DNA of 64,000 nucleotides from Burkholderia sp. PAMC 26561 (lineage in GTDB: Bacteria; Actinomycetota; Thermoleophilia; Solirubrobacterales; Solirubrobacteraceae), in NCBI GenBank assembly GCA_964657595.1, contig CAZZVR010000001.1:17580-81579 (forward strand), read 5' to 3'. Each line of letters starts with the position of its first letter. Position 1 is the first letter of the stretch. The position numbers were made by a program, and so were the translations under genes. Below, one piece after another: positions 19,510 to 46,636 of the stretch. A model generated the notes under the pieces. That model searched no databases and had not been told where the DNA came from. It worked only from the letters and a program-made list of their open reading frames with translations.

Positions 19510-19526
19510 CGCCGCCTTGCGGCCAT

Positions 19527-20774
19527 TTACGGGGCGAAGAGGTCCGGGCCGAGCTCGTCAATCCCGGCGCGCCCGGAGAGTGCGAGGGCGATGTCTAACT
19601 CTCGACGCAGGATCTCGAGCACGTCAGCGACACCCGCCCGGCCGTCAACGGCCAGTCCCCACCAGTAGGGTCGTCCGATCAACACGGCCCGAGCACCAAG
19701 CGCGAGCGCTCTGAGCACGTCGACCCCGCGGCGGACACCACCGTCCAACAGGATCTCCAGATGGTTTGGCGATCCAGCGATGACCTTGGGAAGTGCCCTG
19801 ATCGACGCCTCGACCCCGTCCAGCTGCCGGCCGCCATGGTTCGAGACGATGATGCCGTCGGCGCCGGCATCGGCGGCCCGGGTCGCGTCAGCTGCCGTCA
19901 GGATGCCCTTGACCACCAGCTTGTGGGGCCAGATTTGGCGCAGCCACGACAGCTCTGACCAGGTTTGGGCGGGATTCGTCAGCTTCGTGTTCGCATAGGT
20001 CATCAGCGCCATCCCGTTCCCGTCCGGGATGACACCCTCGAAGTTCTTGAATGTGATCTCGGGACCCGAGAACAGATGCGCGACCCACCACGGATGCCGC
20101 GCCCCCTCATACAGGTTGCGCAGCGTGTACTGCGGAGGCACCCCCATCCCATTGGCCAGATCGCGCTCCCGGACGCCGACGAGCGGAACGTCGACGGTGA
20201 TGACGAGAGTCGTGTATCCGGCCACCCGGGCCCGGTCCACGAGCCGCTCGACGACGTTGCGGTCGCTCCAGAGATACAGCTGAAACCACAGCGGGCCAGA
20301 CGCCGCACGAGCGATCTCCTCGACGGAGAACGCTGACGCGGAGCTGGCGACGTAGACCGTGCCGGCGTCACCCGCACCGGCCGCGGCCTCGAGGTCGCCA
20401 GCCCGATGAACCAGTCGCTGCATCCCGGTGGGTGCCAAGATCACCGGCAGACTCAGCTCGTCACCCAGAACCGTCCTCGCGGTGTTGCGCTGACTGACAT
20501 CGACGAGGGTTCTCGGGTAGATCGGACGCTCGCGGAACGCCGCTTCGTTCTCCTGCATTGTCACTTCGTCGCCCGCCGCGCCGGCGACGAAGTCATAGAT
20601 GAACCGCGGAAGACGCCGCCGTGCCAGCCGCTCATAGGCTCGAACCGACTGAGGCGGCGTCGGTTTCAGGCCCGCGACCCGGTCAGACAACTGCACGGCG
20701 AGACCGTATCGCCGAACCAGGTGGATGTCAATGCTGTCGTTGACGCTGCGACGGTCCTCGCAAAGTTGCGTCAA
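19527..20774 (-). CDS. FMN-dependent alpha-hydroxy acid oxidase/dehydrogenase
   Basis: WFQLY, TVD...R, SNHGGRQLD, DGGVRRG; true start probably 20-30 codons downstream. Confidence 0.9.
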   Translation of the reverse strand: MTQLCEDRRSVNDSIDIHLVRRYGLAVQLSDRVAGLKPTPPQSVRAYERLARRRLPRFIYDFVAGAAGDEVTMQENEAAFRERPIYPRTLVDVSQRNTARTVLGDELSLPVILAPTGMQRLVHRAGDLEAAAGAGDAGTVYVASSASAFSVEEIARAASGPLWFQLYLWSDRNVVERLVDRARVAGYTTLVITVDVPLVGVRERDLANGMGVPPQYTLRNLYEGARHPWWVAHLFSGPEITFKNFEGVIPDGNGMALMTYANTKLTNPAQTWSELSWLRQIWPHKLVVKGILTAADATRAADAGADGIIVSNHGGRQLDGVEASIRALPKVIAGSPNHLEILLDGGVRRGVDVLRALALGARAVLIGRPYWWGLAVDGRAGVADVLEILRRELDIALALSGRAGIDELGPDLFAP

Positions 20775-23598: not shown

Positions 23599-24687
23599 AT
23601 GAGCACGACAGGTAGAGCCGCGGTTCTGGTTGAGCCGAACCGATTGGAGACGTGGGAGGTGCCAGTCACAGATCCCGAGCCTGGCGGCGTTCTCGTCAGG
23701 GTGGTCATCGGTGGCGTGTGTGGCAGCGACAAGCACATCCTCACCGGCGAGGCGGGGATCATGCCCTTCCCCATCATCCTCGGGCATGAGGGCATCGGCC
23801 GCATCGAGAAGCTGGGATCAGGAGTGTTCAGGGACTACGCCAGCGTCGAGGTCAGCGAGGGTGATCTTGTCTACTGGGCCCCCAGCGCACTCTGTGGTCA
23901 CTGTTACAACTGCACGATTCTCGACGCACCGCCGTGTGAGAACTCAGAGTTCTTCGAGCATGCTGAGCGACCCAACTGGGGAAGTTACGCGGACTACGCC
24001 TGGCTGCCTCGTGGAATGGCGTTCTTTCGCCTACCGGATCACGCCCGACCCGAGGCTCTGGCCGCGCTGGGTTGCGCCCTCCCCACCGCCCTGGGCGGCT
24101 ATGAACAGGTCGCCCCGATTCAGGTCGGCGACACGGTAGTCGTGCAGGGGGCCGGACCCGTGGGACTCTCGGCAGTCCTGATCGCCGCGGTCGCGGGCGC
24201 CGCCGAGATCATCGTGATCGACCGCCGTGAACAGCGGCGGGAGGTGGCCATGGCGCTGGGCGCCACGCACACGATCTCCCGAGCTCAGTTCGATGAACCG
24301 CAACGGCGCGAGATGATCTACGACATCGTCGGGCCACACGGCCCGAACATCGTCGTCGAAGCTGCGGGCGCGCTGTCGGCCTTTCCCGAGGGCGTGGCGC
24401 TCACCGGCGAATACGGTCGGTACGTCGTGCTGGGACTCTGGGGGGAGATCGGCACCTCGACGCTGTCACCGCGGGATCTCACGACGCGGAACGTCACGAT
24501 CGGCGGCGCCACGTTCGCCAAGCACAAGCACTACTACCGAGCGATGAAGCTCGCGGCACAGGTACAGGACCGGTATCCGCTCGCTGACCTGATCACACAT
24601 CGGTTTGCTGTCACCGACGCGGCGGAGGCGTTGGAGACGATCGGAACGCCCGACGCCATCAAGGCGATCATCGATCCCACCCTCTGA
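23599..24687 (+). CDS. camD: Zn-dependent alcohol dehydrogenase, 5-exo-hydroxycamphor dehydrogenase (CamD)-like
   Basis: CGSD, GHE, GAGPVG; long stretches (MPFPIILGHEGIGRIEKLG, PNWGSYAD, PEALAALGCALPT, SPRDLT, QDRYPLADLIT) match P. putida CamD as recalled. Confidence 0.8.
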   Translation: MSTTGRAAVLVEPNRLETWEVPVTDPEPGGVLVRVVIGGVCGSDKHILTGEAGIMPFPIILGHEGIGRIEKLGSGVFRDYASVEVSEGDLVYWAPSALCGHCYNCTILDAPPCENSEFFEHAERPNWGSYADYAWLPRGMAFFRLPDHARPEALAALGCALPTALGGYEQVAPIQVGDTVVVQGAGPVGLSAVLIAAVAGAAEIIVIDRREQRREVAMALGATHTISRAQFDEPQRREMIYDIVGPHGPNIVVEAAGALSAFPEGVALTGEYGRYVVLGLWGEIGTSTLSPRDLTTRNVTIGGATFAKHKHYYRAMKLAAQVQDRYPLADLITHRFAVTDAAEALETIGTPDAIKAIIDPTL

Positions 24688-24719
24688 ACCGTGGGCCGTG
24701 GTACTTGAGCACCACCAGC

Positions 24720-26120
24720 TCAGGCGAAGATCTTGCCCGGGTTGAGGATGCCGTTTGGATCGAGCTGCTGCTTGATTCCGCGCATGATCGGGAGTGCGTC
24801 GCCATGTTCCCACTCCAGGTACTTCGTCTTCCCCATCCCGATCCCGTGCTCGCCGCTGCAGGTTCCACCGCGAGCCAGACAGTCGGCCACGATCTCATCG
24901 TTAGCGGCGCGGTAGCGGGCAACGTCCTCAGGATCATCGTCGTCGATGGCGAACAGCACGTGGTAGTTGCCGTCGCCGACGTGCCCAAGCACCTGTGGTT
25001 CGAGGCCGAGGTTCTGCATGATCGCTCGCGCAGCTCGGACGGCGCCCGGTAGCTGTGATAGCGGCACACAGGTATCGGTGCTCTTGATCGTCTTTCCCTT
25101 GTTCGCCTCAATGACGGCAAAGGTGACGTCGTGCCGAGCTGCCCATAGGCGCGTGCGCTGGGTCGGGTTGCTTGACTCGTCAAACGACACGAGTCCAAAG
25201 CCCTCCGCGATCTCGCGCGTCGACTCCAGATCTCCCTCGACCCCCGCCCGGGTGCCGGCGAGCTCGATGAACAGATGGGGACACTCGGGCAGCGCCGTGT
25301 GCTTGAAGGTGTTGACCGCAACGATCGTGGCCCGATCGAGCAGCTCGACGCGGACAGCCTGAACGCCGGCTCCAACGATCGCCGCCGCGCAGGCGCAAGC
25401 ACCATCGAGATCCTTGAACGCGCATCGAATTGCCAACTGGTGGTCGGGAATCCCGTAGAGCCGCAGCGTTGCCTCGGTGATGACGCCGAGCGTGCCCTCC
25501 GAGCCGATCAGCAACTGGGCGAGGTTGTAGCCGGCCGAGGACTTCATCGTCCGAGACCCGAACCGCACGATGCTGCCGTCCGCAAGGACGGCTTCCAGCT
25601 CGAGCACGTTCTGGCGCATCGAGCCGTAGCGGACCGTCGTCGTCCCGCTTGCATTGGTGGCGGCCATTCCGCCGATCGTCGCGTCAGCCCCGGGGTCAAC
25701 GGGGAACCAGAGGCCGTGCTTGGCCGCCGCGCGCTCGAGCGTCATCCGGAGGACGCCAGCACCAACCGTCGCCTGCAGATCCCCGGGACGGATCTCGATA
25801 TCGGTCAACCCCGAGAGGTCCAGGCAGATTCCGCCGGCCAGCGGCACGGTATGGCCCTCGTTGCTCGAACCCGCGCCAAAAGCGACCACCGGGATGAGAT
25901 GCTCATTGGCGTACGCGAGCACCGCACTGACCTCCTCTCGTGTGTGCACGTAGACGACGACATCAGGCAGGTGGCCCAGGAAGTGGCCCATGTAGGGCTC
26001 GCCGTGCAACCGTCGGTCGGAATCGCCGACAGTGAGCTTTCCCCCATCAGTCAGGAGCTCACCCAACTCGTCGGCGAGCCTTGCGAGGGCAGTGTCGCTC
26101 AGCACGGCTTCGCGGCTCAT
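24720..26120 (-). CDS. FAD-linked oxidase, D-2-hydroxyacid dehydrogenase/GlcD-like
   Basis: [38 protein letters not shown]. Confidence 0.9.
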
Positions 26121-26893
26121 GGCGTGACCGGGGACATCATGTCGATGGCGGCCAAGGCCTGGTGGGGGAAGCCGAGGATCTGGTTCTCGTGCACGAGACG
26201 ATCGATCTCCCGCTTCATCAAGATGCGCGTGTACCGAATGGCGAGATCGGTCTTTCCAGCGATCTGCCGGGCGAAATGACGCGCACGCTCGAGCACCTGT
26301 TCGGGCGGCAGAACCTCGTTGACGACCCCGAGCGCGAGCGCCTGCTCCGCATCGAGCGTCTGGCCTGTGAGCAGGAAGAAGCGTCCCCGATTCATCCCCA
26401 ACAGCAAGGGCCAGATGAACTGCACGCCGTCCCCGGGAACGATGCCGGACGGGAAGTGAGGGCCGTCCTGGAAGGAGGCGGTGGTCGAGGCGATGGTGAT
26501 ATCCGACAGGATCGGGATCTCCGGATGGATGGTCGCCGGACCGTTGATGGCAGCGATCACGGGAACCTCGATGTCGAGCAGATTGCGAACCAGCCGGCGA
26601 CCCTCGAAGGCGATGTGCGCCCAGTCCCGCGGCGACGACAGACCGAAGCTCGTGAAGTCGATCTCGTCGCAGAAGTTGGCCCCAGTGCCCGCGAGTACGA
26701 CAACCCGGTTCTGTCGGTCAGCGGCGACATCGGCGAACGCATAGGCCAGCTCGTCGTGCGCGTTGGCGGTCCAGATCAGGCTGTCGCCGTCAGTGTGGAA
26801 GGTCATCTCGAGAATGCCCTCGTCATCTCTTTGAAAGCGGATGTTCTGATACTTCTGCCGGTACTCCTCCAATGGGGGGGCCAGAATCTCCAT
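26117..26893 (-). CDS. Crotonase-fold beta-diketone hydrolase, 6-oxocamphor hydrolase (CamK)-like
   Basis: AHDELAY, EIDFTSF, HPEIP and [16 protein letters not shown] match Rhodococcus CamK as recalled. Confidence 0.82.
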
Positions 26894-26911
26894 ATCACTC
26901 TCTCCGTTGGT

Positions 26912-27991
26912 CTAGTTTCGGCCTGCGCCGACGGCTGAATCAAGTTGTGCGGCGAGGAGCCGTTCGTGGTCGATGCCGTCCCCGAAGCGGCGTTCGCACT
27001 CGAGCACGCGCCGCTGAAGCAGGTGCGCGTCATGCAGCCATGTGAATCCGATGCCCCCGAACACCTGCAGTGCACCTTCGACGATCTCCCGTGCCGAGCG
27101 GCATGCGTAGGCCTTGGCCACCGACGCGGCCAGCGGCCCGTCCTCCAGATCCTCCTCGAGCGCGGCCGAGGCGTACAGGACCGTCGACCAGCTCGTCTCC
27201 CGGCGAACGAGCATGTCGGCAAGCAGATGTTGCAACGCCTGGTTGGAGCCGATGGACCTCCCGAACTGCTGTCGCTCCTTCGCGTAGTCGACCGCCATCT
27301 CGAGCGCACGAGTCGCCGCTCCTAAAGCCTCGGCCGCGGTGGCCACCGCACCGATTGCAAAGGCCCGGGCGAGCACGGTTGGATCGCGCGTGAGGACGCT
27401 GTCGACCGGGGTTCGATCGAACGTCACCACACACGCACCGGCGCTCGGATCCAGACCGGGGGACGCCGTGATGGCGCATCCCTCGGCGTGGGGGGAAAGC
27501 AGAACCACCGCCGGTTCCGCATCCAGCATCGCGTACACGGCGAGGCGGTCACACGCGGCGGCTTGATGGACGGCCAGCTTTGTGCCGGTCACGCGCAGCA
27601 GAGCTCCATCGGCGACCGCCTGGGTGTCACAAGCGTCCGACATCCACCCCGCGTTTGACTCCAGCACGGCGAGCGCACAGCTCACCTCCGCTTCCTCCCC
27701 TGTCATCCCAGAGGCGAGCCGCAGGCTGACCGCAGAGTCGACGAGCAGCGTGGGTGCTGCGTGATATCCGACTTCCGCGGCGAGGAGACAGAGCCCGGGC
27801 AGCCCGAACGGATCATCCCGGTCGATCCCGACGCTGTGCCAGCCGAGTTCGGCGATCTCGCGGATCAGCGGGGCGGGGTCACCGACGCCATCAAGCTGCG
27901 CCCGGGCGCTGCCAAGGTCGCCACGCCCGCCGAGCAGCTTGCGCGCCTCGGCCTTCAGAGCAGACTGCTGGCGGTTGAGCTCGAGATCCAT
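26912..27991 (-). CDS. Acyl-CoA dehydrogenase, short (beta-type) subunit
   Basis: YAKERQQFGRSIGSNQALQH, QVFGGIGFTW. Confidence 0.88.
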   Translation of the reverse strand: MDLELNRQQSALKAEARKLLGGRGDLGSARAQLDGVGDPAPLIREIAELGWHSVGIDRDDPFGLPGLCLLAAEVGYHAAPTLLVDSAVSLRLASGMTGEEAEVSCALAVLESNAGWMSDACDTQAVADGALLRVTGTKLAVHQAAACDRLAVYAMLDAEPAVVLLSPHAEGCAITASPGLDPSAGACVVTFDRTPVDSVLTRDPTVLARAFAIGAVATAAEALGAATRALEMAVDYAKERQQFGRSIGSNQALQHLLADMLVRRETSWSTVLYASAALEEDLEDGPLAASVAKAYACRSAREIVEGALQVFGGIGFTWLHDAHLLQRRVLECERRFGDGIDHERLLAAQLDSAVGAGRN

Positions 27992-29169
27992 TAGGCACTC
28001 CGGGGTAGGTTCAGGATGCGCTGAGCGATGATGTTCTTCTGGATCTGACGGCTGCCGCCATAGACAGATGCAGCGCGTCCGTAGAGGTAGATCTGCTGCC
28101 AGACGGCGAGGTCACCGACGGACTCGTGCTCGGGCGCAGCGGCGTAGGGGCCGAGGACGTCGAGAATCGTCTCGGCAAGAACATGCTCGGTTTCACCGAG
28201 CATCACCTTGTCGATCGAGCTGTCGAAGCCGACGGTCCCCGAGGTGATCGTCCGGCCGACACTGTGGTAGGTCTGATGCTTGAGAACTTCCAGCTTGACC
28301 CGGGCTCGGGTGAGCGCCTGGCGAATCTCGGGCGACTCGATGGCCGGGAGTCCGTCACGGGGAATCGTCCTCGCGACATCAACCAGCCGATCGAGCATGA
28401 CGCTCAAGGTCGCCTGCCGCGTCACGGCGTAGGGACCGCGCTCATGAGCCAGGGTGTGCATGGCCAGACCCCAGCCTCCATTCAGATCCCCGAGGACGTT
28501 CTCACGGGGGACGAGGACGTCCTTGAAGAACACCTCGCCGAACTCGGCTTCGCCGGTGCTCATCACCAGCGGCCGGACCTCGACGCCCGGTGAGGTCATG
28601 TCGACAAGCAGGTAGGTGATGCCCTTGTGAGCCGGGGCATCGGGCGCGGTGCGGGCGAGGACTGCGCACCACTGTGCGTACTGCGCGTACGAGGTCCACA
28701 CCTTCTGCCCGCTGAGGCGGAAGTGATCGCCCTCATCCACCGCTCTCGTCCTCAGGGACGCCAGATCAGACCCGGCGTCCGGCTCTGAGAAACCCTGGCA
28801 CCAGATGTCCTCCGCGGTGAGGATGCGATGCAGGTAGGCGTCCTTCTGAGCCGCGGTTCCGTGCTGGATGATCGTCGGCCCGACGACGTCGACCCCGACG
28901 TAGCCCACCAGCTGGGGAACACGAGCGCGTGCCATCTCCGCGCCGGCGATGATCTGCTCGCTCAGCCCCAGGCCTCCGCCGTCGTACTCCGCCGGCCACG
29001 AGAGCCCAATCAGGCCCGCCCGATGGGCGTGGCGCTGCCATTCGCGCATATAGGCGACGTGGCCATCGAGATTGGTCGGTATCTCGCCGGGTTGTGGCGC
29101 ATGGTCGGCCAGGTAGGAGCGAATCCTCTCCTGTAACGCACGCTCGCTGTCGGTCAGGGACAGTCTCAT
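27991..29169 (-). CDS. Acyl-CoA dehydrogenase, long (alpha-type) subunit
   Basis: WCQGFSEPDAGSDLA, GQKVWTS, VYGGS; ATG 29169. Confidence 0.9.
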   Translation of the reverse strand: MRLSLTDSERALQERIRSYLADHAPQPGEIPTNLDGHVAYMREWQRHAHRAGLIGLSWPAEYDGGGLGLSEQIIAGAEMARARVPQLVGYVGVDVVGPTIIQHGTAAQKDAYLHRILTAEDIWCQGFSEPDAGSDLASLRTRAVDEGDHFRLSGQKVWTSYAQYAQWCAVLARTAPDAPAHKGITYLLVDMTSPGVEVRPLVMSTGEAEFGEVFFKDVLVPRENVLGDLNGGWGLAMHTLAHERGPYAVTRQATLSVMLDRLVDVARTIPRDGLPAIESPEIRQALTRARVKLEVLKHQTYHSVGRTITSGTVGFDSSIDKVMLGETEHVLAETILDVLGPYAAAPEHESVGDLAVWQQIYLYGRAASVYGGSRQIQKNIIAQRILNLPRSA

Positions 29170-30305
29170 GCTCGCTGCATGATCAACGTGGAGCAGTTCC
29201 CGCCGGCACCGAGGGCAAGGCTCATACCGGTTCGCGCCCCTGGGACCTGACGCGCCCCACAACGGCCTCGGAGCTGCTGGACGATCTCATACACCTGGCC
29301 CAGCGCAGAGGCGCCGACCGGCTCCCCTTTGGACAGCAGGCCGCCCGACGGGTTGACGGGGATCCGCCCGCCCAGACTGGTGGCACCGCTCTGCACGAGC
29401 TCTCCACCCGCCCCAACCTCACAGAGTCCGACCTGCTCGGTGGCAATGATCTCGCTGGACGAGTCGGTGTCCTGAAGCTCGAGCACATCGAGATCGCCTG
29501 GGCCGACGCCTGCCGACGCGTAGGCCTGATCGGCCGCGCGTTTCATCACGTGGGGAAGCGTCACCTCGCGAATCGGCGAGAAGGTCGGCATGTGCTCGCC
29601 GATCGCCTGATCGATAGCGGCCGTACCGAGACCCTGCCCCAACAGCTTCACCTCACCCTTCGCGGCGGGCCGGCCGGTGATCAGTGCGGCCGCGGCCCCC
29701 TCGTTCGGGCTACATAGCATGAGCAGTCGCAGCGGGTCGACGACCATCGGACTGGCGAGAATCTCCTCCAGCGACAGTTCCTTGCGATACATGGCCTTCT
29801 CGTTGTGCACCGAGTGGCGGTGGTTCTTGACCGCAACGAGCGCGAGCTGACGCTCGGTCGTACCGTGCTCATAGATGTGGCGCTGGGCACCCATGGCGAA
29901 CTGCGCGGGGTTCAGCGCGTGCCCGATCTGCTGGCGCCAGGGCTCGAAGAAATCCATGCGCATCGCCCCGCGCGGCATCTTCTCGATGCCGATTGCCATG
30001 ACCGTTCCGTAGGCGCCCGAGTCGACTGCCTGGCGGGCCATCTGGAGTGCCGCCCCCCCGGACGAGCACGCGTTCTCCACGTTGATGACGGGAATCCCCG
30101 TCCGGCCCATCAGGCTGGTCAGGCGTTGACCCGCCCCGGTGTGTGCATACATGTGGCCACAGAAGAGCGCATCCACGTGCTGCCAGGTCTCACCCGCGTC
30201 ACCGAGCGCCTCTTCGATCGCCTCGGCTCCGAGTTCCAGAGTGGACTTGTCGGCGAACCGGCCGAACGGGTGCATCCCGACTCCGCGAATGACGATGTCG
30301 CTCAT
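29166..30305 (-). CDS. SCP-x-type thiolase
   Basis: VENACSSG nucleophile, CSPNEGAAA, NPSGGLLSKGEP. Confidence 0.88.
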   Translation of the reverse strand: MSDIVIRGVGMHPFGRFADKSTLELGAEAIEEALGDAGETWQHVDALFCGHMYAHTGAGQRLTSLMGRTGIPVINVENACSSGGAALQMARQAVDSGAYGTVMAIGIEKMPRGAMRMDFFEPWRQQIGHALNPAQFAMGAQRHIYEHGTTERQLALVAVKNHRHSVHNEKAMYRKELSLEEILASPMVVDPLRLLMLCSPNEGAAAALITGRPAAKGEVKLLGQGLGTAAIDQAIGEHMPTFSPIREVTLPHVMKRAADQAYASAGVGPGDLDVLELQDTDSSSEIIATEQVGLCEVGAGGELVQSGATSLGGRIPVNPSGGLLSKGEPVGASALGQVYEIVQQLRGRCGARQVPGARTGMSLALGAGGNCSTLIMQRA

Positions 30306-30709
30306 GCGTCCTCCATCACATAGGCGTAGGAGAGCACCGGGCCCTCCTCGGTGTTCACCTCAAGCAGCTCAAAGTGCACGGGCGCACCGATGGACAGCGC
30401 CTCGATCGGGCTGGCCAGCAGGGTGCTGGCGACGCGGATACCGTCAGGGAGGTCGACGAGACCGATGCCGAAGGGAACCTCCCCGCTGTACCCAGGCGGG
30501 GGGAAACGGGCAATCGCAAAGCTGTAGATCGTGCCCGTCGTCGCCAGGTGGACCACCTCCGGGCCCTTCGTCCCGCAGAACGGACAGTAGGACTCTGCCG
30601 GGAAGGAGAGGGAGGTACACGACAGACAGCGACCACCAAGAAGGGCGGGAGGGGCCACGCTGATCAGCTGGTCGCGGACAGCCGCCAGCCTGCTCACTTC
30701 GGTGTTCAT
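30302..30709 (-). CDS. DUF35 Zn-ribbon/OB-fold protein
   Basis: CxxC...FP...CPxC plus OB-fold. Confidence 0.88.
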   Translation of the reverse strand: MNTEVSRLAAVRDQLISVAPPALLGGRCLSCTSLSFPAESYCPFCGTKGPEVVHLATTGTIYSFAIARFPPPGYSGEVPFGIGLVDLPDGIRVASTLLASPIEALSIGAPVHFELLEVNTEEGPVLSYAYVMEDA

Positions 30710-31596
30710 CGGACTCCCTCGGGGACCGCGTTGGGGACCTGCCAGGGGTCATCCCAGCGATCCCGGACCTTCACGGGTGCGTGGTAACGCATCCCGGGAA
30801 TGGTTCCGCCATCCACCCGGATGTCGGTCCCGGTGATGTAGCCGCCGCCGGCTCCGATGAGAAATTCGACCGTGGCGGCGATCTCCATCGGGTCACCAAC
30901 GCGGCCGAGCGGCGTGTTGCGCAGAGCCTTCACAGCACCGGTGCCATCACCACTCTCGCGCCGACCCATCTCGGTGTCGATCACCCCGGGAGACACCGAG
31001 ACGATGCGGGTTCCGCGCTCAGCGAAGTCCCGCACCTTTCGCTCACAGAGGACGATGACGCCGCGCTTGGACAGCGCATAGGCTGCGCGCTGCTGGCCCT
31101 CACTGGCATCCACCAATTGATCCAGTACGCCCTCACCCAGCGGCTCAGCGAGAAGCTCGTCGTAGCGCTCGGCGCGACGACGATGTCCGGACATCGACGC
31201 GATGCACACCGCGGCCCCGCCCGGCGCGAGCAGCGGGCCGAGTTGCTCGATGATGCGGGCTGTCCCGAGCAGGTTCACCTCGAGAATCGTGCGGGCGTCG
31301 CCCATCGAGGCGGAGACACCTGCAGAGTGGACGAGCGCCCCCACCGAGCCATGCTCGCCGGCGCGCTGAGCCAGCTCTGCGACGGATCCGGAGTCGGCGA
31401 TGTCGCAGGCCTGCAGCGTGACGTCTGCGCCGTCGTGCAGAAGCATGGCCTGGACATCCTCCAGTGCGGCAGCGTTACGGTCGGCCAGCAACAGGCGGTA
31501 GCGAGGTGCCAGACGCTCGGCCACGGCTCGGCCGATGCCGCTGCCGGCACCCGTGATCACCGCCACTCGGGTCTCAACTGAATCCGCCATCTCCAT
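30706..31596 (-). CDS. SDR oxidoreductase (3alpha-HSD/carbonyl reductase-like)
   Basis: TGAGSGIG, HSAGVS, YALSK; start reassigned. Confidence 0.85.
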   Translation of the reverse strand: MEMADSVETRVAVITGAGSGIGRAVAERLAPRYRLLLADRNAAALEDVQAMLLHDGADVTLQACDIADSGSVAELAQRAGEHGSVGALVHSAGVSASMGDARTILEVNLLGTARIIEQLGPLLAPGGAAVCIASMSGHRRRAERYDELLAEPLGEGVLDQLVDASEGQQRAAYALSKRGVIVLCERKVRDFAERGTRIVSVSPGVIDTEMGRRESGDGTGAVKALRNTPLGRVGDPMEIAATVEFLIGAGGGYITGTDIRVDGGTIPGMRYHAPVKVRDRWDDPWQVPNAVPEGVR

Positions 31597-32054
31597 CACC
31601 GCTCCGATCCTGCCGTTGGTGTGCTGAGACCGAGGCGCCGGCGGCGTTCTTGCGCCACGGCATCGACTCGGGTGATCAGAGTGTCCAGCGGTGTCCCGCC
31701 GGGAAAGACATCGGCCACGCCGAGATCCAGCAGGGCTTGACGCTCGGCGTCGGTGGCCACGGTTCCCCCGACGACGATCGCAACCTCGTGGCGCATGCCG
31801 CGGCGCTCCAGTTCGGTCAACAGCGTCTCCGTGAGAGCGATGTGGGCGCCCGAGAGGATGCTCAGCCCGATCACGTCGACGTCCTCCTCGATCGCGGTGC
31901 CGACGATGACCTCGACCGGGACGTGCCGGCCCGTGTAGACGACCTCCATCCCGCCGTCGCGTAGTGCGCGGGCCACGATCCGGGCGCCGCGGTCGTGCCC
32001 ATCCATCCCGATCTTCGCGACGAGCACGCGTACTGGCCAATCCATGGAGCTCAC
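31596..32054 (-). CDS. Acyl-CoA mutase cobalamin-binding small subunit
   Basis: GMDGHDRG, GLSILSG, VGG. Confidence 0.93.
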   Translation of the reverse strand: MSSMDWPVRVLVAKIGMDGHDRGARIVARALRDGGMEVVYTGRHVPVEVIVGTAIEEDVDVIGLSILSGAHIALTETLLTELERRGMRHEVAIVVGGTVATDAERQALLDLGVADVFPGGTPLDTLITRVDAVAQERRRRLGLSTPTAGSER

Positions 32055-33682
32055 AGTCGTCCGCCTTCTTGATAGCGGCCGAAGACGTCAGCGAGCACCC
32101 GGACGCACTCGCCAACGGTGGCGCCCGCGGTGACGGCCGTCTCGAGCGGCCAACAGACGTTGCGCTCCTCTCGAGCAGCTGCGCTCACGTCCGCCAAGGC
32201 GGTGCTGACGGCGCCGGAATCGCGCCGCGCCCGATGGGCCTGCAGCGCCTCGACCTGACGGCGAGCGATAGCGTCGTCGGTCTCGTGCAGATGGGCAACC
32301 TCGAACGCGTCCGCCTCCCCACTGCCCTCGCGAACGAAGGCATTGACGCCGACCACCGGGATCTCACCGCTGGCGATGCCCTTCTCAAGTTCGTAGGCAC
32401 GGTCGTAGAGGACGCTGATGAGCCATCCGTCCTCGACGGCGCGAACCACGCCTCCGTGTTCATCGATCTCCTCGATGAACTGACGCATCCGGCTCTCGCA
32501 TTCATCGGTCAGCGCCTCAACGTAGTAGGACCCGGCGAGGGGATCCACAGTGGAGGGAACTGCCGTTTCGTAGGCGATGATCTGCTGGGTTCGCAGAGCG
32601 ATCCTCTGGGCATCTTCGGTCGGGATGTCGTAGGCCTCGTCGAACCCGATGATGGTGATCGCCTGAGCTCCGCCGAGCACTCCGCCGAGGCAGGCGAGGG
32701 TGCCTCGGACGATGTTGTTGTAGGGCTCCTGACGAGTGAACATCTGGTTGTTCGATGAGTTGAACAGTCGAAACTTCAGGGCGTTCTCGTCGTCGATGCC
32801 GTACCGCTCGTTCAGGAGTCGCGCCCAGAGACGGCGCCCAGCACGGATCTGAGCTGCCTCGAACAGCGGATCCTGGCGCGCCGCGAACAGGAAGCTGAAG
32901 CGGGAAGCGATCTGACAGACATCGAGCCCCCGGGCAACCGCCTGTCCGAGATACAGCAGAGCGTTGCTGAGCACGATCGCCAGGGCCTGTACTCCCGTCG
33001 CCCCGGTGTCGCGGATGTGACTGCCCGACACGCTGATCGGATAGACCGACGGCATCTCGCTCGCGCAGAACTCGATCACGTCTCCCGCAAGTCGTACGGA
33101 CTCGGTCGGCGGGAAGATGAACGCTCCGCGCGAGAGGAACTCCTTCATCATGTCGTTCTGGAACGTGCCGCGGATCACCGAGGGCTCGATGCCCTGTTTG
33201 CGAGCCAGCGCCGACAGCATCGCGGCGATCACGGGTGCGGTTGCGTTGATCGTGAAGCTCGGATTGGCCTCCTGGAGCGAAATCCCGTCGAACAGAGCTT
33301 CGAAGTCGTCGAGCGTATCCACGGCGACCCCGACACGACCAACCTCCGGGTACGCCACCGGGTCGTCGGAGTCATACCCAAGCTGGGTGGGCAGATCAAA
33401 CGCGACGCTGAGCCCGGTCTGACCGGCGCTCATCAGCGAGCGGAAGCGCTCATTCGTCGCACGCGCGTCACCAAACCCTGAGTATTGGCGCATGGTCCAG
33501 AGCCGCTTGCGGTACATCTCCGCGTGGATGCCTCGTGTGAACGGGAACTTTCCGGGCTCACCGATGTTCGGGTCGATAATGCCGTCGCGCGGGCCATAGA
33601 CCACGTCTACGGGAATGCCCGACTCCGTCTCGGTAGGCGGCATGAGCTTCCTATCTCTCACCTCCGGTGTCATGTCCCTCAC
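32051..33682 (-). CDS. B12-dependent acyl-CoA mutase large subunit (MCM family, atypical active site)
   Basis: PFTRG, WTMRQYSGF, AFDLPTQ, QND, DPLAGSYYVE. Confidence 0.92.
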   Translation of the reverse strand: MRDMTPEVRDRKLMPPTETESGIPVDVVYGPRDGIIDPNIGEPGKFPFTRGIHAEMYRKRLWTMRQYSGFGDARATNERFRSLMSAGQTGLSVAFDLPTQLGYDSDDPVAYPEVGRVGVAVDTLDDFEALFDGISLQEANPSFTINATAPVIAAMLSALARKQGIEPSVIRGTFQNDMMKEFLSRGAFIFPPTESVRLAGDVIEFCASEMPSVYPISVSGSHIRDTGATGVQALAIVLSNALLYLGQAVARGLDVCQIASRFSFLFAARQDPLFEAAQIRAGRRLWARLLNERYGIDDENALKFRLFNSSNNQMFTRQEPYNNIVRGTLACLGGVLGGAQAITIIGFDEAYDIPTEDAQRIALRTQQIIAYETAVPSTVDPLAGSYYVEALTDECESRMRQFIEEIDEHGGVVRAVEDGWLISVLYDRAYELEKGIASGEIPVVGVNAFVREGSGEADAFEVAHLHETDDAIARRQVEALQAHRARRDSGAVSTALADVSAAAREERNVCWPLETAVTAGATVGECVRVLADVFGRYQEGGRL

Positions 33683-34686
33683 GTCCTTTCTGTCGTCTGC
33701 AGTGAGCGCAACAGGGCGGTCTGTCTGTCGCGAACGAAGGTGAAGATGTTGGACAGAACCTCGGGGCGCACTCGGCCCGCCTCCAAGTCTTGCGCCGCCT
33801 GCACCAGCACCGCGCGCCCGCGCGGGTCGGCCAGGCGCTTGCGAACGGTCGCGATCGCGTCCTCAAGCAGCCGCCGCTGGCTGCGATCCCGATCGATCTC
33901 AACGCCGCTGGCCGTCAGCCATTTGACGCGCTGTTCGACTGCCTGCACGACCTCATCGATGCTCTCGCGATGCAGGGAGTCGGTCTTGATGATCGGGACA
34001 CGCCACGCGTCCGGGTCGTGGCTGGCACCGATCGCGAGCATCTGACGCAGATCCCCGACGGTCTTGGCGGCGTCGGGAAGATCGGCCTTGTTGACGACGA
34101 ATACATCCGCCAACTCGTTCAGCCCGGCCTTGTCTGCTTGTACGCCGTCGCCCATTCCGGGTGCGGTGACCACCACCGTCACGTCAGCCAGGTTGCAGAC
34201 GTCGACCTCCGATTGTCCGACACCGACCGTCTCGATCAACAGCCAGTCAAATGGCGCTGCAGCCAAGATCGCGATGCACGCCGGAAGCGCCGCCGACAGG
34301 CCGCCCAGATGGCCGCGGGAGGCGAACGAGCGAATGAACACTCCGTTGTCGTCGTTGTGAGCAATCATGCGCAATCGGTCCCCCAGCAGGGCGCCACCGC
34401 CCCGAGGAGATGAGGGGTCAACCGCCACCACCGCGACTCGGGAACCGTGCCGACGGAGCTCACCAGTCACTGCATTGACCAGCGTGGATTTTCCGACGCC
34501 GGGCGCGCCGGTGAAACCGACCACGACCCGCGAACTGCGGAGACCCGCCAGTTCTCGACTCAGTTCCTCACCGGCCGCGGAACCGTTCTCGACCAGCGTC
34601 AGCACTCGAGCGAGCGAGCGACGATCGCCGTCACGTGCGCCCGCCGCGAGCGCGGACAGGTCAGCCTGCATGGTCTGGTTCATCAC
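33679..34686 (-). CDS. meaB: MeaB/ArgK GTPase mutase chaperone
   Basis: GAPGVGKST, DPSS...GALLGDR, ETVGVGQSE, NKAD. Confidence 0.92.
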   Translation of the reverse strand: MMNQTMQADLSALAAGARDGDRRSLARVLTLVENGSAAGEELSRELAGLRSSRVVVGFTGAPGVGKSTLVNAVTGELRRHGSRVAVVAVDPSSPRGGGALLGDRLRMIAHNDDNGVFIRSFASRGHLGGLSAALPACIAILAAAPFDWLLIETVGVGQSEVDVCNLADVTVVVTAPGMGDGVQADKAGLNELADVFVVNKADLPDAAKTVGDLRQMLAIGASHDPDAWRVPIIKTDSLHRESIDEVVQAVEQRVKWLTASGVEIDRDRSQRRLLEDAIATVRKRLADPRGRAVLVQAAQDLEAGRVRPEVLSNIFTFVRDRQTALLRSLQTTERT

Positions 34687-35365
34687 GCTGCAGCACCCTC
34701 AGTCCGCGCAGACTCGCTCGCATCCCACTCACCGCAGTGGGATCGCCTTGGAGCAGCCGCTCGGTCCAATCAATGACCAGCGCATCGAGGGCCACGGCGT
34801 CGGCTGCGACTGCGTGCACCAGGCCCCACGTCGCTGCGTCTGCTGCCTCGATCTTCTCGCCCAGCAGAGCGATTCGTGTCGTTGCCGTCAGTCCGATGGC
34901 GTCCACATAGCGAGCGAGCCCCTGCCGCGGGTAGTCGATCCCCAAGCGTGCGGCAGGCAGACGGAACACACTGCCGGCAGAGCAGACCCGGAGGTCGGCC
35001 GCCAGGACCAATTCGATGGCCGCACCGATGCACAGGCCGTCGATGCTCGCGATCGTCGGCGCTGGGCAGGACTCCACGGCTGCCACCACGCAAGACACGG
35101 CTTCTCGCATGGCCGCAACACTCTCGGAATCCGTGATCGCTCTGAGATCAGCACCAGAGGAGAACGCCCCCGAGCCATCGCCGGTCAGGACGACGACCCG
35201 CGTGCCGTTGGGCAGGTGGAGCAGCGCATCCGTGAGCGTCTGCAGCATCGCCGCCGTCAATGCGTTTCGCGCCCGAGGGTGAACGATCGTGAGACGCAGC
35301 ACGCCGGCAGACGATTCTGAGCGAATGTGCGCCGGGTCCGACGGCACGGCGAGCGCGCTATCCAC
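34661..35365 (-). CDS. Enoyl-CoA hydratase/isomerase family protein
   Basis: RNAL, FSSGADL, CIGAAIEL...DLR; GTG start with a GGAGAGAGG RBS-like sequence. Confidence 0.85.
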   Translation of the reverse strand: MDSALAVPSDPAHIRSESSAGVLRLTIVHPRARNALTAAMLQTLTDALLHLPNGTRVVVLTGDGSGAFSSGADLRAITDSESVAAMREAVSCVVAAVESCPAPTIASIDGLCIGAAIELVLAADLRVCSAGSVFRLPAARLGIDYPRQGLARYVDAIGLTATTRIALLGEKIEAADAATWGLVHAVAADAVALDALVIDWTERLLQGDPTAVSGMRASLRGLRVLQRDEPDHAG

Positions 35366-35392
35366 CTGGGCTATGCCTCTCTCCACTCCGCA

Positions 35393-35421
35393 AGTGTAAG
35401 TAACGTCCAGAGTCTTGTCAA
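35393..35421 (-). promoter_or_regulatory. SigA-like promoter of the 11-gene mutase operon
   Basis: Minus strand TTGACA-17 bp-TACACT. Confidence 0.65.
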
Positions 35422-35455
35422 CGTTTGATTTGACGACCTTTAACGGGAGCTCGAC

Positions 35456-36325
35456 ATGATCTTGATGAAGCAGATCGATGGTCTCGGAGTGGCCGAAGCT
35501 CCTCGCTTTCATCCCCGATGGGGCTTTCTCTTCTCCGACATGACCCACGGCGGTGTGCACACGTTCTCGCATCTGGACGACTCGGTGACCGTCACGACGC
35601 TGATCCCCCACCGTCGAGCCATCGGGGGGATAGCGGTGCACGCCGCGGGGGGACTCGTCGTGACGGGACGCGCGGTCACCTGGCGGCACGGAGCAGGCCT
35701 GGAGGGACGGACGGATCTGCTGACGCCCCAGCCGGATGAGGAGTTCTTCAACGACATGTGGACCGACCGAGCCGGACAAATCTACGTCGGCTCACTCGGC
35801 CGGCTCGACGACACGGGGCGCCGGCCACCTGGCCGCTTCTACCGAATCGCGCTCGATGGGACACCGGAGGTGATCGCCGACGACATCGAGGTCTCCAACG
35901 GCATTACCGGGTCACCCGACGGTCGCTGGGTCTACCACGCCGACACCGGTGCTCAGGTGATCTGGCGGTACCGCGCCAGCGGTGGCGGACTAGCGGAACG
36001 CACTGAGTTCTGCGACCTCAGGGGCAGAGAAGGCGCGCCCGATGGGCTTTCCATCGCTGCCGACGCCACACTCTGGGTGGCCATGGCAGGTGCCGGCGTC
36101 ATCCTGCATCTTGACGAGCGCGGCCGAGCGATCGGAGAACTCCGGGTGGGACAGCCGTTGGTGACGGGGCTGTGCTTCGGGGGCGACGATCTCACGACGT
36201 TCGCCGTGACAACCGGTGTCCTCGATGATGGTGACGAGGGGTCGGGCAGTGTCTACCTGGCCACTGCCGTCGCCCCTGGTGCCCCAGCCCACGAGTCCCG
36301 AGTGCGACCCCCTCAGGCACCCTGA
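35456..36325 (+). CDS. SMP-30/gluconolactonase-family lactonase
   Basis: AEAPRF, FNDM, SNGI, PDGL. Confidence 0.87.
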   Translation: MILMKQIDGLGVAEAPRFHPRWGFLFSDMTHGGVHTFSHLDDSVTVTTLIPHRRAIGGIAVHAAGGLVVTGRAVTWRHGAGLEGRTDLLTPQPDEEFFNDMWTDRAGQIYVGSLGRLDDTGRRPPGRFYRIALDGTPEVIADDIEVSNGITGSPDGRWVYHADTGAQVIWRYRASGGGLAERTEFCDLRGREGAPDGLSIAADATLWVAMAGAGVILHLDERGRAIGELRVGQPLVTGLCFGGDDLTTFAVTTGVLDDGDEGSGSVYLATAVAPGAPAHESRVRPPQAP

Positions 36326-43278: not shown

Positions 43279-44064
43279 ATGCCGCGAGTGACGCCGAAGT
43301 TCAGCGACTACGAGAACGCCTACGACAACATCAAGCTTGAACGCTCCGATACCGGGGTACTGACCGTCCGATTCCACACCGGCGGTGGGAGCCTGGTGTG
43401 GAGCGGCCCCTCCCACGAGGAGGCCGCCTACTGCTTCGGGGACATCGCCGCGGACCGGGAGAACAGCGTGGTCATCCTCACCGGGACCGGCGACGATTAC
43501 TGCGGCGCCATCGACCCCGGCAGCTTCGCCCTGGCCAACGCCCACGAATGGGACGCGACGGTGTTCGAGGGGCGCAAACTGCTGATGAATCTGCTCGACA
43601 TCGAGGTCCCCGTCATCGCCGCGGTCAACGGTCCGGCGATCTTCCACCCGGAGATCCCAATCATCTCCGACATCGTCATCGCCTCCGACACCGCCGTCTT
43701 CCAGGACGCGCCGCACTTCGTGTCCGGCATCGTTCCCGGTGACGGCGCCCACATCGTCTGGCCGCTTGTGCTGGGATCGAACCGCGGCCGGGCCTTCCTG
43801 CTCACGGGCCAGGTGCTCGATGCCAAGACCGCCCAGGAGTACGGAGCCGTCTTCGAGGTTCTGTCCGGCGAGGCATTGATGCCGCGGGCCCACGAATTGG
43901 CCGACGCCATCGCCGCGCAGCCGTTTCTGACCCGCCGGATGGCGCGCCTCGCCTTGATCCACACCATCAAGACGTCCATGCTCGCGGGCCTGGGCTTCGG
44001 GCTGGTCAGCGAGGCGCTCGCAGCCGTCGACGAGTGGCCCGAGGGCGGCACGATGGCCCGCTAA
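43279..44064 (+). CDS. Second CamK-like beta-diketone hydrolase
   Basis: SLVW...[34 protein letters not shown]; ATG 43279. Confidence 0.82.
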
Positions 44065-44113
44065 CGGTGCCGCGGGTCGCGCCATCGGCAACCCGGTGGT
44101 GCGACCCCACCCG

Positions 44114-44168
44114 TTGACAGGCTGTCCCCATATCTCTAACCTCCGCTAGGTAAAAACAAGTAGTTGTT
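44114..44168 (+). promoter_or_regulatory. SigA-like P450 promoter with KstR2-like operator
   Basis: TTGACA-17 bp-TAACCT; AACAA-gtag-TTGTT at 44155-44168. Confidence 0.7.
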
Positions 44169-44224
44169 TTGGTGCAGGATCGACCTGAAAACCGTCTGGA
44201 ACCGTCTGAGGAGAGGTAATACAG

Positions 44225-45499
44225 ATGAGCGTTGGAGAAGACACGTCCGCTGATGTGCAGACAGGTGGCCATGACGGCATGGCGTCCGAGGGCCGGTTCA
44301 GCCCCGAGGAGCTGACCAAGCGCTACGGCCGGGACATGTTCCGTGACTTCGATCTGGACGACCCGGCGTTCAACAAGCACTTCTTCGACATCCTCGACGA
44401 CATGGTCGAGGGATGTCCGGTTGCGCGCAGCAACAAGGGCGACGGCTATTGGATGGTTACGCGCCAGGAGGACATCCGTCAGGTCGGGCAGGACTGGAAG
44501 ACGTTCTCCAGCGCCAAGGGCTACATGCCCAACCGGCCTGAGGGGTACCCGTATCTGTTCCCGGAGGAGTCCGACCCGCCGATGCATACGGCGTGGCGCC
44601 GGGCCTTGAACCCGCACCTCACCCCGAAGGCGATCGCGGGGTACGACGCGCCGATCCGGGCCGACGCGAACACGCTGATCGACCGGTTCGTCGATCGCGG
44701 TGAATGTGAGTTCGTCAGTGAATTCGCCGCCAAGCTGCCCGGCTGGGCGTTTTTCAAGAACGTCATGGGTGTGCCGGTCGAGGATCTCGACAAGCTCGTG
44801 GCTGGCGTGGAGAACGGCACCTTCGCCCCGGTCGAGGAGCGGGCGGCCCACATGGGTGGCGTGTTCGAGTACCTCGGCACCTACGCGGAGAAGCGTCGTG
44901 ACGAGCCATCCCGCGGCGACATGGTCGACACGATCATCGCCGGCGTCGAGTACGGAGACGGCGTCATGTCCCCCTGGGAGGACCGCGTCAGCGTGCTCGT
45001 CGACCTGACCTTCGGTGGCATCGCCACGACCACGTTCGTGATGGCCGGCGGTATCCATTACCTGGCCACCCATCCGGACGCCCAGCAGTGGCTGGTCGAC
45101 CACCCCGAGGCGATTCCGCGGGCGGTCGAGGAGTTCATCCGCTTCTACCCGCCGGTCGTGGCGCTGGGGCGCACCTGCACGCGCGACGTCGAGGTCGCCG
45201 GTACGCAGATGAAGAAGGACGACTTCGTCATGCTGGGCTACGGAGCCGCGAACCGTGACCCGCGCGTCGTCGACAAGCCGACGGAGATGGACCTCAACCG
45301 TGAGAGCGTGCTGCACTCCGCCTTCGGGGTCGGCGTGCACCGCTGCATCGGCTCGAACCTCGCCCGCCAGGAACTGAAAGTGACCTTCGAGGAGTTCCTG
45401 CGGCGGGTCCCGAAGTTCAGCCTCAAGTCCGGCACCGAGCCGGTCTACGACACCGGCTTCCTCCGCACGATGAAGGACCTCCACCTGGTCTTCAGCTAG
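44225..45499 (+). CDS. Cytochrome P450
   Basis: EFIR (ExxR), FGVGVHRCIG heme ligand. Confidence 0.95.
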   Translation: MSVGEDTSADVQTGGHDGMASEGRFSPEELTKRYGRDMFRDFDLDDPAFNKHFFDILDDMVEGCPVARSNKGDGYWMVTRQEDIRQVGQDWKTFSSAKGYMPNRPEGYPYLFPEESDPPMHTAWRRALNPHLTPKAIAGYDAPIRADANTLIDRFVDRGECEFVSEFAAKLPGWAFFKNVMGVPVEDLDKLVAGVENGTFAPVEERAAHMGGVFEYLGTYAEKRRDEPSRGDMVDTIIAGVEYGDGVMSPWEDRVSVLVDLTFGGIATTTFVMAGGIHYLATHPDAQQWLVDHPEAIPRAVEEFIRFYPPVVALGRTCTRDVEVAGTQMKKDDFVMLGYGAANRDPRVVDKPTEMDLNRESVLHSAFGVGVHRCIGSNLARQELKVTFEEFLRRVPKFSLKSGTEPVYDTGFLRTMKDLHLVFS

Positions 45500-45603
45500 C
45501 CACAGTCTCTCTCCAGACGCCGCGGATCGTCGGTCTGAGCCTGCGCGGCCCAGACCGACGGTCCGTTGTGCGTTCTACCCAACCCCAGCGAGCGGAAGTG
45601 AAC

Positions 45604-45810
45604 ATGACGACGATCAAAGTCAGCTCCCTGTGTTCCGGTCACGGGCGCTGCTACACGCTGTACCCCGATGTCTATGAGTCCGACGACGATGGCTACAACG
45701 CGCACATGAACGGTGAGTTCGAGGTCCCGGCTGAGCTGATCGAGACCGCGCGGGCCGGCGCCAAGGCCTGCCCCGAGCGGGCCATCACGGTCGAGGAGGG
45801 TGAGGGTTAG
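45604..45810 (+). CDS. [3Fe-4S]-type ferredoxin (CxxHxxC...CP)
   Basis: CSGHGRC...CPERAI; directly after the P450. Confidence 0.9.
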   Translation: MTTIKVSSLCSGHGRCYTLYPDVYESDDDGYNAHMNGEFEVPAELIETARAGAKACPERAITVEEGEG

Positions 45811-46409: not shown

Positions 46410-46431
46410 CGACACATTCTTACTTGCGAGA

Positions 46432-46450
46432 TCTGGCACCCGGTGTTATA
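46432..46450. promoter_or_regulatory. Probable MftR operator
   Basis: T-CT-GGCA-CCCGG-TGTT-AT-A resembles the T-N2-GGCA-N5-TGCC-N2-A MftR site as recalled. Confidence 0.55.
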
Positions 46451-46491
46451 AGTCTGTGTGATCCCCGTCACTGTCATAAGGAGGGTATGCC

Positions 46492-46629: not shown

Positions 46630-46636
46630 ACCGACC

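Follow-up and report, generated by a model that had tools for sequence, protein, structure and literature searches.

The 64,000-nucleotide stretch analysed here (the window; contig CAZZVR010000001.1 of assembly GCA_964657595.1), which belongs to a 3.87-Mb metagenome-assembled genome that is 82% complete, encodes a B12-dependent acyl-CoA mutase that we refer to as the orphan mutase. It is specified by three consecutive genes:

33679..34686, minus strand: MeaB-type G-protein chaperone (GTPase); TIGR00750, 280 bits (cut-off 240.75), and PF03308, 277 bits
32051..33682, minus strand: acyl-CoA mutase large subunit, substrate-binding TIM-barrel, 543 aa; PF01642 and AlphaFold model
31596..32054, minus strand: mutase small subunit, cobalamin-binding, 152 aa; PF02310 and TIGR00640

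As described below, this is an intact mutase from a rare and conserved branch of the family with no characterised member, and its substrate is probably a branched carboxy-acyl-CoA outside the range of the known mutases.

The large subunit (32051-33682), named P0001 in our comparisons, matched PF01642 at positions 1-512 of 512 in the profile search, with 571.8 bits, and scored 534.9 bits with TIGR00641, above the cut-off of 303.8; with NF006944, the equivalog model for methylmalonyl-CoA mutase (MCM), it reached 459.5 bits, below the cut-off of 876. The small subunit gave 88 bits with PF02310 and 120 bits with TIGR00640 (cut-off 57), and all of its cobalamin motifs are found in the translation, namely, DGHDRG (DxHxxG), SILSG and VVGG. 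The MeaB translation contains the P-loop GAPGVGKST together with NKAD. Overlaps of 4 nt join the MeaB stop to the large-subunit start, and the large to the small subunit; the dedicated MeaB that had been proposed in a sequence-only reading of this DNA is supported.

At the structural level, the best solved relative of the large subunit is HcmA of 2-hydroxyisobutyryl-CoA mutase (HCM; 4r3u, E 1e-126, HMMER search against solved structures). The AlphaFold model used here was obtained from an alignment of 130 sequences and has a pLDDT of 94.9 and a pTM of 0.94, while an input of 19 sequences gave a pLDDT of only 65.6. Superposition of this model on the structures of HCM, MCM and IcmF, a fused isobutyryl-CoA mutase (ICM), yielded TM scores of 0.88-0.90, with 0.90 for both 4r3u and 2xiq; a protein atlas look-up returned generic mutase clusters only. 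The full TIM-barrel domain, the separate cobalamin subunit and the catalytic and cofactor-side residues are all found, and the sequences support the view that the three genes make up a complete split-type adenosylcobalamin-dependent acyl-CoA mutase with its own MeaB.

Active-site residues and comparison with characterised mutases

Residues are discussed under P. shermanii MCM numbers, counted along the HMMER alignment to 1req_A (chain index + 1). First, Tyr67 in WTMRQYSG and Arg185 in EFLSRG correspond to Tyr89 and Arg207, and both are kept, in agreement with the carboxylate-binding pair recognised by the sequence-only reading. Also kept are His222 in SVSGSHI (His244), Gln175 (Gln197), Arg261 (Arg283), Ser263 (Ser285), Asp348 (Asp369) and Glu349 (Glu370). 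Second, Tyr243 is changed to Ser221, within the same SVSGSHI motif. Third, two segments are replaced: FRLFNSSNN stands in place of LRTHSQTSG, with Phe307, Ser309 and Asn312 at His328, Gln330 and Gly333; and QAITIIGFDE stands in place of QSLHTNSLDE, with Ala341, Thr343, Ile344 and Ile345 at Ser362, His364, Thr365 and Asn366. Positions 328-333 are thus F-N-S-S-N-N, and positions 361-366 are Q-A-I-T-I-I. According to the strand positions in the AlphaFold model, 328, 330, 333, 364 and 366 lie at the barrel top, near the cofactor in MCM structures. All five motifs named beforehand (MRQYSG, EFLSRG, SGSH, RLFNSSNN and QAITII) are present both in the translations and in the HMMER alignments to solved structures. 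Because Tyr89, Arg207, His244, Gln197 and Glu370 are kept, we place the orphan mutase in the carboxylate-recognising group, as are MCM and ethylmalonyl-CoA mutase (ECM).

For comparison we used the MutB, the IcmF and a third paralogue from the same genome, HcmA from the M. petroleiphilum plasmid, the pivalyl-CoA mutase (PCM) locus Xaut_5042-5044, and MeaA of Ruegeria sp. TM1040, encoded beside ccrA. P0001 is 41-42% identical to HcmA, 37% to MutB, 37% to MeaA, 35% to PCM and 33% to IcmF. When aligned to these real reference sequences, none of the MCM, ECM, ICM, HCM and PCM signatures fits, just as the sequence-only reading had claimed.

MCM (EC 5.4.99.2; P. shermanii 1req, human 2xiq and the genome's own MutB) shares with the orphan mutase its fold and Tyr89, Arg207, His244, Gln197, Arg283, Ser285 and Glu370. 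However, Tyr243 is Ser, His328/Gln330/Gly333 and Ser362-Asn366 are replaced, the equivalog score is below threshold, and P0001 falls outside the MutB clade. ECM, as represented by Ruegeria MeaA, is the more instructive case: it retains Tyr89, Arg207, His244 and Glu370, and rewrites the same two segments relative to MCM, to G-V-Q-V-N-S (328-333) and R-A-V-Q-L-P (361-366). Based on this shared residue logic, the orphan enzyme most likely works as ECM does, that is, by thioester migration in an alkylmalonyl-CoA. Nevertheless, the two differ in that ECM is a fused single chain rather than two subunits, belongs to a separate clade, and keeps Tyr243 and Gln330, neither of which is present in the orphan mutase, near whose gene there is no ccr. 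From the MeaA-type pocket (Tyr243, Gly328, Gln330, Ser333, Arg361-Ala-Val-Gln-Leu-Pro366 and Asn369), only Ala362 is common to both.

The mutases acting on non-carboxylated substrates, ICM, HCM and PCM, show the reverse pattern, with positions 89 and 207 both changed and segments 328-333/361-366 kept. HcmAB (4r3u; M. petroleiphilum PM1 plasmid) resembles the orphan mutase in its split architecture and adjacent MeaB-like gene, besides being its closest solved structure (TM 0.90), but has Ile90, Asp117 and Gln208, in line with its hydroxylated, non-carboxylated substrate, where the orphan mutase has Tyr, Ala and Arg; it also keeps Tyr243, His328, Gln330 and SLHTN, which the orphan mutase lacks. 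PCM (X. autotrophicus Xaut_5043/5044) is likewise a split mutase with its own MeaB, takes part in quaternary-carbon catabolism, and is the only characterised type that, like the orphan clade described below, lacks Tyr243 (it has Gln there); its substrate contains a quaternary carbon. However, PCM sits on a distant branch, has Leu at 89 and no Arg at 207, as befits a neutral substrate, and keeps His328, Gln330, Gly333 and SMHTD. ICM/IcmF has Phe at 89 and Gln at 207, as opposed to Tyr and Arg in P0001. Finally, MatB/MatQ and ActD, from matlystatin and actinonin biosynthesis, are split-type mutases proposed to convert hexylmalonyl-CoA into 2-pentylsuccinyl-CoA (PMC5719088). By description only, these actinomycete enzymes of the HCM subclass, with a long alkylmalonyl-CoA as their proposed substrate, are similar to the orphan mutase and provide a precedent for new alkyl specificities; they are biosynthetic, however, and cluster with carboxylase/reductase and epimerase genes (PMC5719088), whereas the orphan gene lies in a catabolic operon without those partners.

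The claim of a remodelled pocket, then, holds in that both segments are replaced, but not in the sense of a unique feature, since ECM and dozens of uncharacterised 50%-identity clusters rewrite the same HxQ..G/SLHTN segments. The pocket signatures of the family's 50%-identity representatives are very diverse, and segment rewriting appears to be a usual route of diversification in the family, the orphan clade being one among many. Given that ECM, the other carboxylate-type mutase, whose substrate is larger than that of MCM by one carbon of the alkyl group, remodels these two segments, we suggest that 328-333 and 361-366 form a wall around the alkyl group, which would tell methyl from ethyl in MCM versus ECM. 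We infer that substrate specificity in this family is set by two modules that are largely independent of each other, namely, a carboxylate/H/OH site (89/207) and an alkyl wall (328-333, 361-366), the latter surrounding the alkyl carbon that receives the migrating thioester; and that the orphan clade combines the carboxylate module of MCM and ECM with a third version of the alkyl wall and the loss of the Tyr243 ring.

The diversity of signatures among the 50%-identity representatives could also be taken to indicate a substrate that is not of the malonyl/succinyl type, for example a ring-bearing or a keto/hydroxy acyl-CoA, with Arg207 binding some other polar group. Such a substrate would agree with the nearest solved relative being HCM rather than MCM, and with the beta-diketone hydrolase homologue encoded in the operon (see below), from which oxo-substituted intermediates are expected. 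However, ICM, HCM and PCM have all replaced Tyr89 and Arg207, whereas the orphan clade keeps both invariantly, and we regard this explanation as quite improbable. The residue comparison rather supports an enzyme that would work in the manner of ECM, with another alkylmalonyl/alkylsuccinyl-CoA as its substrate, probably one of greater bulk or branching.

Conservation and phylogeny of the orphan clade

A search of 5.8 billion proteins yielded 19 clusters at 61-100% identity, followed by a drop to matches of at most 52% (from 698 to 553 bits). Among 1.84 billion 50%-identity representatives, searched exhaustively with HMMER, the whole group amounts to a single representative, the next match having 50% identity and 498 bits. 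Its named members come from Pseudonocardiales and Actinophytocola. Another 18 full-length relatives, with 61-84% identity, carry the pocket substitutions as well. Tyr89, Arg207 and His244 are invariant in the clade, as are the equivalents of Gln197, Arg283, Asp369 and Glu370, with Ser263 being Thr in one member. Position 243 is Ser in 17 of 18 members and Ala in the remaining one. Segment 328-333 reads F/Y, N/A/S, S/A/G, S/T/V, S/N and an invariant N, and segment 362-366 reads A, I/A/V, T/N/H, I/V/C and I/T/L. Residues that are fixed throughout the clade and seldom found outside it are concentrated at 221-233, 260-276 and 303-312, where barrel strands 6, 7 and 8 of the AlphaFold model have their C-terminal ends, at the barrel top.

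This pattern is that of a protein under selection rather than of chance or decay. Relaxed selection had been named beforehand as an outcome that would refute the proposal of the sequence-only reading, and we found full-length frames in which the signature and the catalytic His244/Glu370 are kept across 61-100% identity. A catalytically dead protein, or one with a non-mutase role as a cobalamin-binding or regulatory remnant, could be suspected from the absence of His328, Gln330, Gly333, His364 and Asn366, given that MCM, ICM, HCM and PCM all keep His328, Gln330, His364, Thr365 and Asn/Asp366 (residue table, aligned references). Yet ECM is active without His328, His364, Thr365 and Asn366; the orphan clade has its own substitutions in frames that remain complete; and the dedicated small subunit and MeaB are retained, with intact motifs, and translationally coupled within a catabolic operon. 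Loss of function is therefore very hard to reconcile with these data, and we continue with the reading of a working mutase.

Phylogenetic trees were built with FastTree (153 rows) and with IQ-TREE under LG+C20 (68 rows). In both, the orphan clade received 100% support on a long stem (0.35-0.49) and is nested within a well-supported group of 34 rows made up of uncharacterised split mutases, with the MCM, ECM, IcmF, HCM and PCM references all outside. Placement within one of the five characterised clades, the phylogenetic check set out in the sequence-only reading, was thus found in neither tree.

A pattern scan of genome contigs starting from P0001 recovered only relatives of at most 52% identity, besides a 59% match confined to a fragment of 108 residues; a scan of metagenome contigs, which used overly general patterns from the clade alignment, gave no clade member among the matches listed. 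In a sequencing-run search, the DNA turned up only in moss metagenomes of one study, with no RNA run among the listed runs.

Operon, catabolic island and other mutases of the genome

The orphan mutase is part of an eleven-gene operon at 24720-35365 on the minus strand, whose adjacent genes mostly overlap by 1-4 nt; the exceptions are a gap of 18 nt ahead of the CamK gene and, at the MeaB start as annotated, an overlap of 26 nt. Besides the three mutase genes, the operon features are as follows:

35393..35421, minus strand: sigma-70-like promoter (TTGACA, 17 nt, TACACT), 10 of 12 positions matched, in the 90-nt gap before the first gene
34661..35365, minus strand: crotonase-fold protein ECH-1, first operon gene (PF00378); its end overlaps the annotated MeaB start
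30706..31596, minus strand: short-chain dehydrogenase/reductase (SDR; PF13561/PF00106), TGATG overlap with the small-subunit stop
30302..30709, minus strand: DUF35/ChsH2-type OB-fold and zinc-ribbon protein, thiolase partner (PF01796, PF12172), 4-nt overlaps on both sides
29166..30305, minus strand: Ltp/SCP-x-type thiolase-fold protein (PF22691, PF00108; NF006102 lipid-transfer protein, 310 bits; BbsB, 186 bits)
27991..29169, minus strand: acyl-CoA dehydrogenase large subunit, PimC-like (TIGR03204 pimC_large, 232.8 bits), ATGA overlap with the thiolase stop
26912..27991, minus strand: acyl-CoA dehydrogenase small/partner subunit, PimD/IpdE2-like, with the C-terminal acyl-CoA dehydrogenase domain only (matches IpdE2 and pimD_small)
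26117..26893, minus strand: 6-oxocamphor hydrolase (CamK) homologue, a crotonase-fold beta-diketone hydrolase (341 bits, E 5e-101 to 1o8u; 247 bits to Anabaena 2j5g)
24720..26120, minus strand: GlcD-like FAD-linked oxidase/dehydrogenase, last operon gene (PF01565, PF02913; TIGR00387, 308 bits, below cut-off)

No other promoter-like site lies within 24000-36000, and Rfam gave no match in the window. The earlier description of a beta-oxidation operon with a CamK-like gene stands, as a coupled CoA-ester operon that contains a true 6-oxocamphor hydrolase homologue.

ECH-1, which starts at GTG 35365 and is preceded by a GGAGAGAGG ribosome site, keeps the first catalytic Glu of its fold (AIEL), but the second is replaced (LPAARLG versus the PE of hydratases), and on this basis it is not a canonical hydratase. 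A related arrangement was observed in the closest annotated relatives of the orphan mutase (47% identity), which are encoded on Marinobacter and Paraburkholderia plasmids. These mutases keep Tyr89/Arg207, have Ala at 243 and rewritten wall segments, and lie directly behind a crotonase without the second Glu (L129:8150-8926 and L130:8113-8916), with a CoA transferase following; both loci also have an annotated TRAP-transporter binding protein. A one-Glu crotonase is thus found immediately upstream of an orphan mutase of the Tyr89/Arg207 type in three unrelated hosts, namely, the present genome and the two plasmids, and could represent a conserved pairing of a mutase with a decarboxylase-like enzyme. 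In E. coli, Sbm (ScpA), ArgK, ScpB and ScpC form one operon in which a mutase and a MeaB-type GTPase are accompanied by a crotonase that is a methylmalonyl-CoA decarboxylase. The orphan operon has the same three kinds of gene, and the differences are that Sbm is a canonical fused MCM and that the orphan operon contains no CoA transferase. Since the plasmid loci resemble this Sbm-ArgK-ScpB-ScpC logic, in which activation of a dicarboxylate precedes its rearrangement and a final decarboxylation, it is tempting to speculate that ECH-1 may decarboxylate the mutase product; with about 30% identity to the plasmid crotonases and 91.8 bits with the methylmalonyl-CoA decarboxylase (ScpB) model, whose cut-off is 257, this step is a conjecture drawn by analogy.

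The operon is flanked by a 46-kb island with a second CamK homologue beside a P450, SnoaL, several SDRs, an HSL-type esterase, two SGL lactonases, a Baeyer-Villiger monooxygenase, three CoA ligases, a MaoC hydratase, a second Ltp thiolase, a thiamine pyrophosphate enzyme, an FMN dehydrogenase, transport genes and TetR regulators. In the camphor route of Rhodococcus sp. NCIMB 9784, hydroxylation and oxidation to a beta-diketone are followed by retro-Claisen ring opening and Baeyer-Villiger oxidation, and substrates of this terpenoid type carry gem-dimethyl groups. By analogy, the genes of island and operon look like equipment for the degradation of a cyclic terpenoid ketone by an actinobacterial camphor-type route.

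Several observations on the island and the genome are recorded here in their own right. The two CamK homologues, at 26117-26893 (minus strand) and 43279-44064 (plus strand), score 341 and 329 bits to 1o8u, are 52% identical to each other and are the only two in the genome; the first is inside the CoA-ester operon and the second adjoins the P450. Loci with CamK genes in two congeners are not syntenic with the island. Directly after the P450/ferredoxin pair, at 45807-48138, there are genes for a mycofactocin regulator (MftR-type TetR) and an MftC-like radical-SAM/SPASM protein, and many of the island SDRs could be mycofactocin-linked. At 17608-20774, a thiamine-diphosphate enzyme, weakly like 2-hydroxyacyl-CoA lyase, adjoins an FMN-dependent alpha-hydroxy-acid dehydrogenase, and the pair could form an alpha-oxidation module. 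Third-codon-position GC is about 0.79-0.83 in the island (3000-45000) versus 0.84-0.92 in further genes (44000-64000), or about 0.79 versus 0.88-0.92 when the island is set against the distal genes, and the best named homologues of the island come from other actinobacterial orders, which together give a weak hint that the island was perhaps acquired.

The same genome contains a canonical MutAB, a MeaA-type ECM with its own MeaB, IcmF and a PduO-type adenosyltransferase, and at least five mutase loci were counted in its 3.9 Mb. The IcmF-type fused isobutyryl-CoA mutase is in the window, at 60223-63711 (plus strand, a frame of 1162 aa), 25 kb from the orphan mutase; its canonical Phe/Gln pair (89/207) and HxQ/SLHTN pocket are intact. 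Camphor breakdown classically ends in isobutyryl-CoA. The third paralogue (L128:9797-11416, minus strand, contig C128) is of the ECM type, being 57-62% identical to the MeaA proteins of Paracoccus and Ruegeria, and is accompanied by a MeaB gene at L128:8838-9800 and, on the same contig, by a malyl-CoA-lyase-like gene. Contig C89 has a further mutase fragment, which matches residues 58-191 of the orphan mutase at 52% identity.

With MutAB, a MeaA-type ECM and IcmF already in the genome, the orphan mutase is not a housekeeping enzyme. It could still be an isozyme of known activity, that is, an MCM or ECM that serves the propionyl-CoA or C5 units of the pathway, with its pocket changes reflecting neutral drift or tuning. 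The conservation of Tyr89, Arg207, His244 and Gln197 would be expected in this case; the breakdown of methyl-branched terpenoids gives propionyl-CoA; and ECM itself alters 328-333/361-366 while its substrate remains a small alkylmalonyl-CoA. We nevertheless consider such an isozyme unlikely, not only because canonical MutAB and ECM are present, but also because neither the operon nor the 46-kb island encodes a carboxylase, an epimerase or a crotonyl-CoA carboxylase/reductase; Tyr243, kept by MCM and ECM, is lost, with both segments unlike those of either enzyme; the MCM equivalog score is about half of the cut-off; and the clade lies outside those of MCM and ECM.

Proposed function of the orphan mutase

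The reading that we favour, with a probability of roughly 0.55, is that the orphan enzyme is a functional mutase of alkyl-substituted malonyl/succinyl-CoA esters, with a substrate new to the family, in a terpenoid-type catabolic operon. Its general part, namely, a carboxylate-type mutase with a pocket unlike those of the characterised enzymes in a catabolic operon with CamK, is supported by conservation, phylogeny and residue logic. The data directly show that the genes are intact, to which family they belong, the residue pattern and its conservation, the phylogenetic separation, the operon structure and what the neighbouring genes encode; from these we infer catalytic activity, a substrate of the carboxylated class, in which direction flux runs and that the source is a terpenoid. 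The more specific proposal of the sequence-only reading, that a bulky, branched dicarboxyl-CoA would be rearranged to remove a quaternary or branched carbon block, is a plausible hypothesis from the context, and now a better motivated one. Ring cleavage of a camphor-like terpenoid ketone would give a branched or 2,2-disubstituted acyl-CoA intermediate; the mutase would interconvert a malonyl-CoA that bears alkyl substitution, probably in branched or 2,2-disubstituted form, and the correspondingly substituted succinyl-CoA; and this rearrangement would unblock breakdown by the co-translated enzymes, that is, the PimCD-like dehydrogenase, the SDR and the thiolase/DUF35 pair. The one-glutamate crotonase may act as a decarboxylase, by analogy with E. 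coli Sbm-ArgK-ScpB.

Various points weigh against this reading. First, the kept Tyr89/Arg207 pair is also compatible with plain methylmalonyl- or ethylmalonyl-CoA activity, and the roles given to positions 243, 328-333 and 362-366 come from sequence comparison with enzymes of known substrate and from the structural literature. Second, the link between the mutase clade and terpenoid catabolism is drawn from one operon, and the best 120 homologues each of the operon thiolase and CamK do not come from contigs equal in length to those of the mutase relatives, although this comparison is indirect and both families are far commoner than the mutase clade. Third, no orthologue was found in 36 genomes of the same genus, 24 of the same order and 400 drawn from the phylum, and the function cannot be generalised. 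Our literature searches turned up no description of a B12 mutase acting in the lower part of camphor or terpenoid degradation.

A further step, which we put forward tentatively and consider doubtful, is that the orphan mutase represents a sixth natural mutase specificity, resolving gem-dimethyl or quaternary carbons in aerobic camphor-type terpenoid catabolism. Candidate reactions are the conversion of 2,2-dimethylsuccinyl-CoA into isopropylmalonyl-CoA, and of a 2-alkyl-2-methylmalonyl-CoA into a 2-alkylsuccinyl-CoA. Either the one-glutamate crotonase would subsequently decarboxylate the product, or the Bbs-like set of dehydrogenase, SDR and thiolase would cleave it.

To our knowledge, only five natural acyl-CoA mutase specificities are established (MCM, ICM, ECM, HCM and PCM), with one more proposed from genetics, and each earlier new specificity opened a pathway or a biotechnological route. 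We also know of no settled account of how gem-dimethyl or quaternary carbons, which must be handled in this pathway context, are dealt with in the lower part of camphor-type pathways. The orphan gene is a concrete candidate that can be cloned, and the hypothesis to be tested with it is that its enzyme acts on a carboxy-acyl-CoA whose alkyl group is branched. The residue comparison may be useful for sorting the many orphan mutases, as the 89/207 and 328-333/361-366 modules appear to vary independently. If the sixth specificity were true, B12 radical chemistry would fill the lower part of the actinobacterial camphor pathway.

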